A stretch of 49,727 nucleotides of DNA, from contig CAZOKB010000008.1 of the NCBI GenBank assembly GCA_964580285.1, positions 1 through 49,727 on the forward strand. Direction: 5' to 3'. Origin of the DNA: an uncultured Bdellovibrionales bacterium. GTDB taxonomy: Bacteria > Patescibacteriota > Minisyncoccia > Moranbacterales > UBA1568. Positions 6,925 through 31,545 of this stretch are shown piece by piece (the stretch's first letter is position 1; every line of letters begins with the position of its first letter). The notes beneath the pieces were generated by a model. It made no database searches. It was not told the DNA's origin and saw nothing but the letters and a program-made list of their open reading frames with translations. The translations under genes and the position numbers were made by a program.

Positions 6925-7641
6925 TCACCTCTTCGGTTTCAATACATTCGAAAACCGCTTATTGATGTTTTCAGGTATCGCGAGCTGCACCGGTTTAAAC
7001 GACATCCGATGCAGCGGGCAGGGCCCATGCTTCCGGAGCGCATCCATATGTACTTTGGTTCCATAGCCCTTGTGTTGATCGAAACCGTACACCGGATAGA
7101 GCCCCGCATATTCATCCATCATCCGATCACGTGTCACCTTGGCGATAATCGAAGCCGCCGCAATGGATTTCGAAATGCCATCACCGCCGATGATTGCCTC
7201 CTGAGCAAGCGACAGATGGGGAATCGCCTGGTTACCATCTACGAGAAGAAAAAAATCTTGATCAGATTTCTGTTGATTGTTCGTTGTTAATTGTTTTTTG
7301 ATTGATGATACTGCGGCCTTCATAGCTAAGAAAGTCGCTTCAAGGATATTGACCCGATCGATCGTCTCGGGCGAGATGATGCCGATACCGGTAAAAAAAT
7401 ATTCCTGGATAAGATCGAAGATCTTCTCCCGCTGCTTTTCAGACAACTTCTTCGAATCGCGGATCAGGGAAAATTCTTTTTCGAGTGCATCCGGAATAAC
7501 AAACAAGGGATCTTTGAAACAGACGGCCGCGGCTACAACCGGACCTGCTAAGGGACCACGACCGACTTCATCCACACCAATGACTACCCGACCCCCGTCA
7601 GGTGATTTCAGTTTTTCAATATCAAAGGTGGTTGTTTGCAT
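6925..7641 (-). CDS. rnhB: Ribonuclease HII
   Basis: IGVDEVGRGPLAGPVVAAAV, DSKKLSEKQRE, IAAASIIAKVTRDRMM, HKGYGT; start reset to ATG 7641 because the longer ORF runs through an opposite-strand promoter and RNA. Confidence 0.96.
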   Translation of the reverse strand: MQTTTFDIEKLKSPDGGRVVIGVDEVGRGPLAGPVVAAAVCFKDPLFVIPDALEKEFSLIRDSKKLSEKQREKIFDLIQEYFFTGIGIISPETIDRVNILEATFLAMKAAVSSIKKQLTTNNQQKSDQDFFLLVDGNQAIPHLSLAQEAIIGGDGISKSIAAASIIAKVTRDRMMDEYAGLYPVYGFDQHKGYGTKVHMDALRKHGPCPLHRMSFKPVQLAIPENINKRFSNVLKPKR

Positions 7642-7696
7642 ACGGCTATTGTACCCCGCTTTCCTATTCCCGCCATCCTCACTCATATACGCATCA

Positions 7697-7725
7697 TTGA
7701 CAAAAATACATTCTAGTGCTATAAT
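7697..7725 (+). promoter_or_regulatory. Consensus sigma70 promoter TTGACA-17-TATAAT with extended -10 (TGn)
   Basis: ttgaca 7697-7702, spacer aaaatacattctagtgc, tataat 7720-7725. Confidence 0.85.
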
Positions 7726-7730
7726 TGTAA

Positions 7731-7948
7731 TTCGATAGTCGTCTTGGCGGACGTCGAAAGCAAGTGGACAGCCAGGTTTCCAGCAAAGACGGTCCTCGGT
7801 CAGCTGGAGAAACAACAGGGGTCTTTTCCAAGGGAAGAAAGCTCGATGCGCGCAGAGCAATCATCCTAAAGAAGAGAACTGAATTGTTGTATACTAGCGC
7901 GCCCCCGGGTCGTACGGAACCATCGTACTTCCCGGGGTTTTCATTTTT
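7731..7948 (+). ncRNA. Candidate structured small RNA (about 215 nt), family unassigned
   Basis: Bounded by the perfect promoter and a strong terminator; several self-complementary segments; no ORF with an RBS contained within it. Confidence 0.5.
7903..7948 (+). terminator. Rho-independent terminator
   Basis: ccccggg-tc-gtacg-gaaccat-cgtac-tt-cccgggg followed by ttttcattttt. Confidence 0.8.
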
Positions 7949-28189: not shown

Positions 28190-28200
28190 ACGATATATAT

Positions 28201-29358
28201 TTACGGTTTTGGGAGGTGATGTCCTCGGGGAATATGTGTTGCTTCCCATATATACGGTAACTGCAATACCCATTGTACATACCGCTGCCATCCGAGACCG
28301 AAGCCCGAAGTTTTTTGGTAATTCCCCTGAAGCCTCGTCTGAATATACGGATCGTAGTCTCCTTGCGGCAGATTGAATGTCTTCGCCTTTTCCTTCAACG
28401 CTTCCGAGCTCGAAATGCGCGTTCCGCTTCCGACCGTCTCACGATACCCACACAGGATAAAATCCGCGTTCTCGGCGAGCGGAGTGCCGTCCTCGTTCTC
28501 ATTAAGTTCGTTGTGATAGAAAGGAATCTGCAGCAACGGGAATTTCGTCACGATGACGTGCTTGCCGAATATCTCCGTAAGTCTTATTTCTTCCCATGCA
28601 CCGAAATTCTTCAGACTGAATTCCTTGTACACATCATTTCCGGTCTCCCTATGGAGAGCCTCAAGCGCCTCCTTGAAGGTGATCGTAACGATATTTCCCT
28701 CTAAAAAAGCACCTGGAAGCTCTTCAAACTTTGCATCGCCGATAAAATATTTCAGACTTTCTCTCTCATTGACTATGAGGTATTTCGTAATATGACGCAT
28801 CAAACCGAGAAAGATATCGATATTCTGGTCGAAAGAAACCTTCCCCTCGAATTCGATGTGCTGGAATTCCGAAAGGTGACAAAAGTCCGCTTTTTCTTTC
28901 CTGAATGAATTGTATATGGAAAATACTTTATCGATATTCTGTTTCAGAAGCCGGAGCTCGAGATAGAATTGTGAGCTTTCCGAAAGGAAAACATTCCGCT
29001 CATTATCGAACCAGGCTACATCAACTGGGAGCGTATCGGTCGTGTAATCCAGCATTTTCCCGGCATACACTTCTCCCGGGGATGAAATCATGAGCGTCGT
29101 AAGGGGAAGATTGCACCACTCGGCACCGATCGATCGGAAATACTCCACCGCTCCGAAAAATACACCGTTGTCTATCTTATGGAGATGATAAAAATATTCT
29201 GGATCCTGAAAAATCTTTGCAATCCTTCCTGTTGTGATTCCTTCGCTGAAATCGAATTCTCTGACGTCTTCAATGGGCTGGAATACGTTATTTCCGTTGT
29301 ACCTGATCTGTTTCTTGCCGCCATCGGATAGAGCTGAATACGGGCTAAGATTATTCAT
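28201..29358 (-). CDS. AsnRS/AspRS-like class IIb catalytic domain lacking the anticodon-binding domain (asparagine-synthetase AS-AR-like architecture)
   Basis: LSESSQFYLE, motif 2 FRKEKADFCHLSEFQHIEFE, ETVGSGTR, motif 3 SGFGLGWQRYVQW; no recognisable N-terminal OB fold. Confidence 0.85.
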   Translation of the reverse strand: MNNLSPYSALSDGGKKQIRYNGNNVFQPIEDVREFDFSEGITTGRIAKIFQDPEYFYHLHKIDNGVFFGAVEYFRSIGAEWCNLPLTTLMISSPGEVYAGKMLDYTTDTLPVDVAWFDNERNVFLSESSQFYLELRLLKQNIDKVFSIYNSFRKEKADFCHLSEFQHIEFEGKVSFDQNIDIFLGLMRHITKYLIVNERESLKYFIGDAKFEELPGAFLEGNIVTITFKEALEALHRETGNDVYKEFSLKNFGAWEEIRLTEIFGKHVIVTKFPLLQIPFYHNELNENEDGTPLAENADFILCGYRETVGSGTRISSSEALKEKAKTFNLPQGDYDPYIQTRLQGNYQKTSGFGLGWQRYVQWVLQLPYIWEATHIPRGHHLPKP

Positions 29359-29388
29359 ACTGATACCGTTGAAAAACTAAAGAATTTT

Positions 29389-31545
29389 TTAGCCAAGTAA
29401 TTTCTTAAACTCAGATTCATTTAAAATAGCTACTCCCAGTTCCTTCGCCTTGTCATACTTACTCCCCGGATGTTCGCCAGCAATGACATAACTAGTTTTC
29501 CGGCTTACCGATGATGAGACACTTCCGCCTCGCTTCTGTATCATATCTTTCGCTGCATCGCGTGTAAAGGAAGAAAGCTCTCCGGTGAGTACGAAGGTTT
29601 TCCCGGAAAAGATCGGCACTCTTGTTTGAGCCTCCATGAATGCCAGCGTCACTCCAAGTTCTTCCAGGCGTTCCAACATAGCCTGGTGCTTGGAATCAGC
29701 GAACCAGCTCACCAAACTCTCGGCACTCTTTTCACCGATTCCCTTGAGAGCCATCCATTCCTCTGCGTTCATCGATAACAGCACCCGGAGCGCAGTACCT
29801 ATACCTTCCCGTCCTACCAGCTGCTGAGACAACCCCTGGGCGATGAGGTACGCTGTTTCTTCTCCAACGTGCCGGATACCCAGTGCAAAGAGAAATTTTT
29901 GAAGAGGTACCTGCTGCTGAGCTTTCTTGATTGATTGCACTAACTTTTCTGCTTTTCTATCCGCAAAACGCTCGAGCGGAGCAAGATCACCCACCGTCAA
30001 CTCAAAAATATCCGCGAGATCAGAAATCAATCCTTCATTCATCAGCTGTTCAATGATTTTGTCACCCAAACCAACAATATCAAAACCCTTACGTCCGACT
30101 GCATGAATAATACGTTCGCGTTCCACAGCGAAACAGGATGGGTTCGTACAGTACACCGCCACACTCTCCTCTCCTCGACTCCCTGTTTCTTGTTCTTCGT
30201 TTCTTGTTCTTCGTTTCTTGTTATCCGTCATCTGCCTCGAAACCGGGCTCCCGCAAATAGGACAATGTTCCGGCATCATATAAGGCTGCTCTTGTCCTGT
30301 ACGAAGCGCTGTTAGTACAGAAACCACTTCTGGGATAATATCGCCGGCTTTCTGGAGAATCACCGTATCACCAATGCGTACATCGAGCCGAGCAATTTCA
30401 TCGGCATTATGCAGCGTGGCTCGACTCACCGTCGATCCCGCTATCCGTACTGGCCGCAAATGAGCCACTGGTGTCAGCGCTCCCGTGCGCCCGACCTGCA
30501 CCGTAATATCTTCTACTACCGTTGTCGCCTGTTCGGCCGGAAATTTATAGGCCATACCAAAACGGGGTGCCTTGCTCGTGTACCCAAGCGCTTCCTGAAA
30601 ACGCCGATTATTGACTTTGATCACAATGCCATCTAGTCCATACGGTAGTTCGTGGCGCCGCTTGGTCCATTCGGCATAATACACATCCACTTCCTCGATT
30701 CCACAACAAAGCTGGTGATGCGGATTCACTTTAAAACCAAGCTCTTTAAGAAACTCAAGCTCTCCACTCTGACTCTGTATTGCGTTCTTTATTCTTTGTT
30801 CGCTGTCCGTTGTTTGTTGGTTGCTGACTGATACGTAGTCGATATCATAAATAAATGAGTCCAGCTTGCGTCCTGCTATAACTTTCGGATCGAGCTGGCG
30901 GATTGACCCTGCGGCCGCATTACGCGGATTAGCAAAGACTGGGTCACCGGCGGCTTGACGCTCCGCATTGATGCGTTCCAGCTCGCTGCCTGCCATCCAT
31001 GCCTCCCCTACTACCACCGCATCCACCGGCTGTGTCAGCTTGAGTGGAATACTATGCAGAGTCCGGAGATTCTGCGTCACGTTCTCACCTACACTTCCAT
31101 CGCCGCGTGTCGCTCCCTGCACTAATACTCCCTGTTCGTAGGTAAGAATGATTTTCAATCCATCAATTTTGAGTTCACAGCAGTATTCAATCTCCCCCCC
31201 GGCAGTGACAAGTCCAGCCTGCAGGAGCAGTTTCTGCACTCGCGCATCCCAAGCCTGAAGCTCTCTCGCATCAAACACATCATCAAACGACCACTGAGCC
31301 ACCCTGTGCTGCACTTTTTCAAAACCCGGCAAAGGCTCCGCTCCCACTCGCTGTGTCGGGCTTTCCGGTACAATCAGTTCCGGATACTCATGTTCAATAT
31401 CTTCGAGTTCGCGGTAGAGGGTATCGTAGGCTTCGTCAGAAATATCAGGCTTATCCAAGACATGGTAGGCATACCGGTGCCGATCAATCTCGGCCCGGAG
31501 GATTTCTCCTCTTTTTTTCGCTTCAATAAAGGTCATTTTCTGCAT
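29389..31545 (-). CDS. ligA: NAD-dependent DNA ligase
   Basis: ELKIDG (KxDG), [22 protein letters not shown], zinc finger, C-terminal BRCT ([11 protein letters not shown]). Confidence 0.98.

Follow-up and report, generated by a model that had tools for sequence, protein, structure and literature searches.

Degenerate heptanucleotide repeat arrays within essential genes and at gene junctions of a Candidatus Moranbacteria genome

The DNA analysed here (the window) is a whole contig of 49,727 nt, contig C8 of the 0.97-Mb, 16-contig genome G000 (Candidatus Moranbacteria, Patescibacteria; GCA_964580285.1, CAZOKB010000008.1). Three of its genes, ligA, rnhB and miaA, contain short degenerate arrays of 7-nt units, two of them in ligA, and further arrays lie between genes (Table 1). 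The four gene-borne stretches had been singled out by the original prediction, which took them for insertions in essential genes; their sequences and coordinates were confirmed letter for letter. They are not chance occurrences: all four belong to families of heptanucleotide tandem repeats that are found throughout the genome.

Table 1. Heptamer arrays of the window and their host genes; host genes were identified by Pfam.
Feature	Position	Strand	Description
ligA	29389-31545	-	NAD-dependent DNA ligase with two arrays; Pfam; E = 7.6e-155 to E. coli LigA (2OWO)
ligA zinc-finger array	30181-30222	-	six heptads: AACAAGA AACGAAG AACAAGA AACGAAG AACAAGA AACAGGG
ligA site-1 array, adenylation domain	30782-30830	-	AACAACG GACAGCG AACAAAG AATAAAG AACGCAA in best manual phase; encodes 15 residues
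rnhB	6925-7686	-	RNase HII; Pfam
rnhB array	7270-7304	-	four AACA heptads: AACAATT AACAACG AACAATC AACAGAA; encodes KQLTTNNQQKS; AACA x4 called at 7271-7295
miaA	11870-12799	+	Pfam
miaA array	12423-12457	+	ATC/AATC core: ATCCGCA ATCCGCA ATCAAAA ATCTGAG ATCCGCC; encodes SAIRNQKSEIRHA; AATC x3 in core scan
Inverted GAAT pair	8172-8267		[GAATnnn]x3-4 then [nnnATTC]x4; fills divergent rnhB/dnaE spacer, abuts dnaE ATG at 8259
Inverted GAAT pair	11790-11873		between dnaE stop (11789) and miaA ATG (11870)
Single-arm TGTT array (AACA family)	4190-4229		intergenic; no fold, z = +0.55
Single-arm ATTC array (GAAT family)	33058-33098		intergenic; four units
GAAT x4 array	33704-33735

Arrays were located in two ways. 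In the array scan, windows in which 19 or more of 28 positions were identical at lag 7 were clustered, with lags 4, 5, 8, 10, 11, 13, 16 and 17 as controls; in the core scan, three successive cores at exactly 7-nt spacing were sought and compared with spacings of 5, 6 and 8-11. The rnhB and miaA arrays each reach 19/28 identities at lag 7 and ligA site 1 reaches 21/28. Site 1 was not called by the exact-core scan, and its label as AACA-like rests on manual phasing. The zinc-finger array of ligA is weaker at lag 7, with AACA cores spaced 14 nt; it forms a perfect 14-nt tandem repeated 2.7 times at 30185-30222 (Tandem Repeats Finder) and was called as an AACA array in the core scan.

Across the genome the array scan found 64 arrays at lag 7, compared to 3-6 at each of the eight control lags, and 31 at lag 14. 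When the threshold was raised to at least 20/28 there were 296 windows at lag 7 and 0-21 at lags that are multiples of neither 3 nor 7. The core scan resolves three families: three GAAT/ATTC cores in a row occur 55 times at 7-nt spacing and 0-1 times at other spacings, while the corresponding counts are 36 and 0 for AACA/TGTT and 11 and 0 for AATC/GATT. A whole-genome autocorrelation gave no lag-7 signal, because the arrays are too sparse, and local scans are therefore required. The genome-wide period of 7 that had been predicted is thus a local excess found in many places, and does not extend to the autocorrelation of the genome as a whole. Unit number has a sharp maximum at four: in the GAAT family 21 arrays have four units, 7 have three and 2 have five, and runs of just two units do not rise above background.

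Although around 90% of the genome is coding (crude open reading frame (ORF) calls), 38 of the 64 arrays are not internal to genes, with 19 at gene edges and 19 intergenic; the other 26 are in ORFs. The hosts include SecA, ArgRS, LeuRS, TsaD, TatD, the CCA-adding enzyme and two glycosyltransferases, and the same peptides recur in unrelated proteins: KQLTxNxQQ from AACA arrays, NIEYRISNIE and STFxIQHSTF from the two strands of the GAAT family and IKxLKS from the AATC family. Counted from the core-scan list, AACA arrays inside genes are in the sense orientation in 12 cases and antisense in one. The leucyl-tRNA synthetase, encoded outside the window (G000 C7:15122-18025), also has an inserted NUDIX domain (PF00293, residues 412-508) in addition to three heptamer arrays.

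The coding arrays might be thought to reflect the protein rather than the DNA, with selection for polar low-complexity linkers, or an A-rich codon composition, mimicking a 7-nt period. The translated peptides are indeed polar (rich in Q, N, K and T) and located in loops. However, a selected peptide repeat would give a period divisible by 3, not 7, and intergenic DNA carries the same cores in both orientations. Furthermore, the absence of matches at other core spacings argues against compositional chance, and congeners of the same composition have no arrays. The control lags and the intergenic family members already contradict this explanation, which we regard as extremely improbable.

The same three cores are present in the sister species G009, whose RNase HII is the closest to that of G000 (78% identity); its array density is 7.9 per 100 kb, compared to 6.6 in G000. 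Three other congeners are at background, with 0.3 (G007), 0.8 (G006) and 0 (G004) arrays per 100 kb; the DNA scanned amounted to 560 kb for G009, 320 kb for G007, 390 kb for G006 and 158 kb for G004. More widely, around 10 kb was sampled from each of 30 genomes of relatives in the order (337 kb in total), and yielded 104 arrays at lag 7 and 4-20 at the control lags; certain genomes hold most of these arrays, and the units differ from one such genome to another. Many coding arrays occupy orthologous sites in G000 and G009, where the copy of each species has been homogenised. In ArgRS, for instance, AAACAAC x4 in G009 corresponds to ATAACAG x3 in G000 at equal length. Orthologous arrays undergo concerted evolution.

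Both array sites of ligA correspond to loops in the E. coli enzyme (2OWO), site 1 mapping between its residues ~233 and 236. The zinc-finger array encodes 14 residues that sit between the two Cys pairs, and all four cysteines (C428, C431, C466 and C471) are kept, each in an invariant alignment column. In an AlphaFold2 model of the protein (mean predicted local distance difference test score (pLDDT) 87.7) the zinc-finger insert is predicted to be disordered (pLDDT <50 at residues 442-456) and the site-1 insert to be a surface loop plus helix extension (pLDDT ~82, partly helix at 246-255).

The length actually gained at each site is less than the array itself. Site 1 of LigA is 9 residues (27 nt) longer than in 6 congeners and the zinc-finger loop 11 residues (33 nt) longer than in 8, while the RNase HII loop exceeds those of all congeners by 4 residues (12 nt), with larger inserts at the same loop in other genera. 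There is no net gain in miaA (0/-3 nt, the same length as in congeners or 1 residue shorter); its loop has 14 residues compared to 15-21 in congeners and is not alignable with theirs, but it is not longer. Thus the arrays as originally delimited, of 63, 49, 35 and 35 nt, differ from the indels of +33, +27, +12 and 0/-3 nt, and the proposed coincidence of indels with arrays holds for both ligA sites and rnhB and fails for miaA, which cannot be counted as an insertion. The “63-nt insert” of the zinc finger reflects the span chosen for it (30172-30234); the real insert is 11 residues, in a loop that already has 14 residues in congeners. The arrays lengthen loops that were already variable instead of creating new ones, as had been proposed. 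For the other coding arrays, comparison with array-free G007 gives several gains of 6 to 12 residues, several loops of equal length and two that are shorter.

How the loops change was examined in a maximum-likelihood tree of metagenomic LigA homologues that are 72-76% identical to the protein of the window. One clade, of 12 sequences including G001, G004, G006, G007 and G008, is free of arrays; its zinc-finger loop has 14 residues in 12/12 and its site-1 loop 12 residues in all 9 of the 12 sequences that could be read by an anchor pattern. In the seven-member subclade to which the window belongs, the site-1 loop varies from 10 to 29 residues and the zinc-finger loop from 12 to 46. The DNA of the zinc-finger loop of P0009 contains 14-16 AACA heptads, and that of site 1 of P0007 ~9 AAC heptads. 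Among these close relatives, P0007 has 42 nt (6 heptads) more at site 1 than P0006 and P0009 do; P0009 has 84 nt (12 heptads) more in its zinc finger, where G000 in turn exceeds P0006 and P0007 by 21 nt. Each difference is a clean block made wholly of AAC-core heptads and is a multiple of both 7 and 3. These whole-heptad steps, seen against static loops in the array-free clade, uphold the idea of a repeat process filtered for reading frame. The prediction that indels would often be 21 nt is correct for the closest LigA relatives only; compared to the array-free clade, a rule of multiples of 7 or 21 was rejected (27, 33 and 12 nt).

In six genomes that are more distant, LigA also carries arrays, built from units of their own, in the same three or four loops, which have thus been hit independently by arrays in other genomes. 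In-frame elements of a different kind were also seen in LigA. That of relative G030 (L018) has one and the same 36-nt palindromic sequence, ACCCTCTCCCCGAAAGGGGCGAGGGGGAATAAGGAA (peptide TLSPKGARGNKE), in three loops (residues 116, 253 and 465), and that of G014 (L007) has CCCCTCCTTTAGAAAGGGGAGG in the zinc-finger loop. A peptide family, FQTADAPLKQRNDRSQ, PRQARNDKGYRV and PARNDPQAKRSDSGG, recurs in several loops of unrelated proteins and presumably reflects a further small repeat element; inserts of the FQTADAPLKQRNDRSQ family are carried by the metagenomic LigA sequences P0025, P0031, P0033 and P0034 and by the G009 orthologues of G000 C2:70438-71823 and C4:93370-94317.

We consider that the arrays are probably heptanucleotide repeats of the same class as the short tandemly repeated repetitive (STRR) and TAACTGA repeats, which change by whole units, are filtered for reading frame and are tolerated in loops. 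Each unit consists of a conserved 3-5-nt core (GAAT, AACA or AATC/GATT) plus 2-3 variable bases, and arrays are placed mainly at gene junctions, as inverted pairs of ~4 units, but also in frame within genes. There, an array changes length by whole heptads and only changes divisible by 3 survive, so that close relatives differ by 21, 42 or 84 nt. Arrays are found where a polar, flexible peptide can be tolerated, as the disorder modelled for the zinc-finger insert illustrates, and within genes the AACA family may survive only in the sense orientation, which is A-rich and encodes Q, N, K and T. We infer that the steps arise by replication slippage or unequal exchange, and the translated peptides are likely to be passengers, not adaptations.

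Within the species the arrays do not vary. Eight LigA variants (>99% identical) showed no difference at either array, and in ten strain contigs, which share 96.8-100% identity over 5-11 kb, none of the arrays covered has an indel or a substitution. The process must therefore be slow, or currently inactive in this species; it had been called active, and that is apparent between species but not within this one. The same arrays were present in independent assemblies from at least 10 samples and so are not an assembly artefact. Phase-variable contingency loci, in which the repeats would act as a hypermutable switch, were rejected: there are no strain-level indels, and the hosts are essential and always in frame. 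The strain contigs do differ from the window elsewhere, by a 70-71-nt deletion in the gatB/dut spacer (window 14613-14690) and, at 13012 adjoining a AACCAACAA motif, by an insertion of 7 nt together with substitutions; no other indels were seen in 5-11 kb at 96.8-98.8% identity.

Between genes the arrays are mostly inverted pairs that fill spacers and abut start and stop codons. As RNA, the pair in the rnhB/dnaE spacer is predicted to fold with -28.3 kcal/mol (z = -4.35) and the pair between dnaE and miaA with -21.5 kcal/mol (z = -4.32); the latter is unchanged in strains that are 96.8-100% identical elsewhere. The four gene-borne arrays are single arms without a fold (z = +1.18 to -1.84), and at Rfam gathering thresholds there is no known RNA family in the window. 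An origin of the hairpin arms by inverted duplication, or their maintenance by selection for pairing, was rejected, since two arms resemble each other no more when they form a pair than when they come from different pairs: complementarity at the variable positions is 0.567 within pairs and 0.568 between them. The 3' arms of both pairs in the window reach the ATG of the following gene, dnaE or miaA, and therefore leave no space for a Shine-Dalgarno sequence. Outside the window, two whole inverted pairs are translated in frame (G000 C2:84528-84618 and C3:51444-51522); one, in a GT4 glycosyltransferase, reads EYGMQNIEYRKESQKSTFDIQHSTFILY and adds 18 residues relative to G007, and the other, in the CCA-adding enzyme, adds 10 residues relative to both G009 and G007.

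Such translated hairpins, in the glycosyltransferase and the CCA-adding enzyme, would be expected if the arrays were copies of a small mobile element, similar to a Rickettsia palindromic element (RPE) or a miniature inverted-repeat transposable element (MITE), that inserted as a unit of ~28-30 nt or as a two-arm hairpin, with only in-frame insertions surviving in genes. The preference for four units would fit a mobile module of this kind, and one such module would be about as long as the net gains (27, 30 and 33 nt). True palindromic elements (CCCC-GAAA-GGGG, in identical 36-nt copies) do occur in the same LigA loops of other relatives, and in-frame insertion at a tolerant loop, as is typical of RPEs and MITEs, is found at both ligA sites and in rnhB, though not in miaA. 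Nevertheless, the array copies share just the 4-nt core, with no full-length similarity, and the lack of a fold in the four gene arrays (z = +1.2 to -1.8) argues against a palindromic element. Sister taxa, moreover, differ by 3, 6 or 12 units and not by whole modules, and no transposase-like partner was identified. Insertion of a mobile element is, on this evidence, very unlikely.

Several observations also weigh against the reading that we favour. At a looser threshold 41 arrays were found in crude ORFs, where ~8-10 are expected by chance. Net length is unchanged at miaA and at several other coding arrays, so some arrays must form or persist by replacement in place, and the gains over the array-free clade are not multiples of 7 or 21. 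Strains that are up to 3% divergent are invariant. Finally, the polarity is the same in 32/32 inverted pairs (G000 plus G009), and slippage alone leaves this fixed polarity, the conserved core with its variable neighbours and the sharp peak at four units unexplained. These last three features point to a sequence-specific factor.

It is conceivable, although we think it unlikely, that the arrays function as nucleic-acid sites which a sequence-specific protein reads, and that the copies in genes are working sites, or products of the activity of that protein, and not slippage debris alone. Reading of 7-bp heptads is known from the ribbon-helix-helix repressor omega/ParB. Here the candidate reader would be a four-helix-bundle protein of family PF05635. 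A conserved core beside variable positions, mostly in four units, would suit such a reader, as would the uniform polarity of the pairs, and the arm comparison suggests that the unit is kept rather than the pairing. Both PF05635 genes of G000 (C1:127650-127943 and C2:56762-57010) are flanked by inverted AACA arrays, and arrays adjoin the gene at 7/12 PF05635 loci in relatives. Over 30 genomes, PF05635 copy number correlates with array density (Spearman 0.59, p = 6e-4, phylogeny ignored), and within the genus G000 and G009 have both the gene and the arrays, whereas G007 and G006 have neither.

The association is imperfect, however. In G004 a PF05635 gene is intact, yet 158 kb contains no arrays; in G029, 12.8 kb contains 9 arrays and there is no PF05635 gene. 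GAAT, the commonest family, flanks no PF05635 gene, and in other genomes the units that flank the gene do not match arrays sampled elsewhere in the same genome, although these samples are small. G000 and G009 may share both features by descent alone. In addition, neither the four arrays nor the whole window encloses a PF05635 gene; the cassettes are on other contigs (C1:127574-128073 and C2:56617-57107) and share the AACA core. We therefore treat the link between PF05635 and the arrays as a lead and not as a result. PF05635 is the family of 23S rRNA intervening-sequence proteins and is related to Avd of diversity-generating retroelements (PMC10053308). A reverse transcriptase or diversity-generating retroelement as the driver was nonetheless rejected, as PF00078 does not track the arrays (G009 has arrays without a reverse transcriptase and G007 a reverse transcriptase without arrays). 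A broader proposal, which we hold to be doubtful, is that a lineage-specific system that reads or writes heptads creates and keeps the arrays genome-wide, with PF05635 proteins as possible components and ongoing remodelling of loops in essential proteins of candidate-phyla-radiation bacteria as a side effect. Such a system, if real, would explain bacterial heptamer repeats and their preference for four units.

Whatever its cause, the distribution of the arrays amounts to a natural experiment, in which sister clades of one genus differ in having arrays and the loops are static without them and move in 21-nt steps with them. An essential DNA ligase can accommodate from 12 to 46 residues of repeat-encoded peptide in its zinc finger. 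The inserts also inflate marker-gene alignments, which matters for the annotation and phylogenomics of bacteria with small genomes.

Bacterial heptamer repeats have been on record since 1990 and still lack an explanation. The comparisons with STRR repeats and with RPEs that accompanied the original prediction are both apt. RPEs, reportedly described by Ogata et al. in 2000, are said to be palindromes of 100-150 bp whose copies are similar over their whole length and which reportedly lie in frame in housekeeping genes at surface-exposed, tolerant positions. The arrays resemble them as short in-frame repeats at tolerant positions of housekeeping genes; unlike RPE copies, they have no more than a core in common, often consist of a single arm and vary in steps of 7 nt. 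The PF05635 genes of G000 and relatives stand between inverted heptamer arrays, of which the AACA family is also that of ligA and rnhB.

The closer likeness is to heptanucleotide repeats, in that there is a head-to-tail excess of 7-nt units, dispersed mainly in non-coding DNA near ORF ends, with unit numbers that vary between species. Cyanobacterial STRR sequences are such repeats, and a period-7 excess has been reported among prokaryotic simple sequence repeats (PMC4692102, Rehm et al. 2015). As with STRR sequences, there are several families of 7-nt tandem units per genome, dispersed and mostly non-coding; unlike them, the units are degenerate, the arrays are short (mostly four units), usually in inverted pairs and in frame in essential genes, and the host belongs to the Patescibacteria. 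The GGGAATC and GGGGA(C/T)T repeats of Xanthomonas and Nostoc lie within ~50 bp of ORF starts or ends and are found less often than expected in coding DNA, and their preference for four units was attributed to G-quadruplex formation (PMC4692102). Unlike those G-rich repeats, the GAAT, AACA and GATT cores cannot form quadruplexes, and yet their preference for four units is equally sharp, so G-quadruplex formation cannot be a general explanation for it.

Sets of 2-6 TAACTGA direct repeats occur in Beggiatoaceae, Cyanobacteria and Bacteroidetes, a few bases upstream of start codons (PMC4679880, MacGregor 2015). A minority are inside ORFs and are translated as LSVISYQ at the periphery of the protein, mostly in hypothetical proteins or at protein ends (PMC4679880). 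Both systems place sets of heptamers by start codons and have some of them translated. TAACTGA, however, is one fixed unit in direct repeats only, whereas here there are several cores and inverted pairs; and LigA, RNase HII, SecA and aminoacyl-tRNA synthetases carry the translated arrays in internal loops, where changes of length between species go by whole units. Among the papers searched, none describes such arrays in Patescibacteria. The differences from these known systems are the degenerate unit of core plus variable bases, the inverted pairs, the occurrence in Patescibacteria, the translation in internal loops of essential enzymes, and the steps of 21 nt, which contrast with the static loops of the array-free sister clade.

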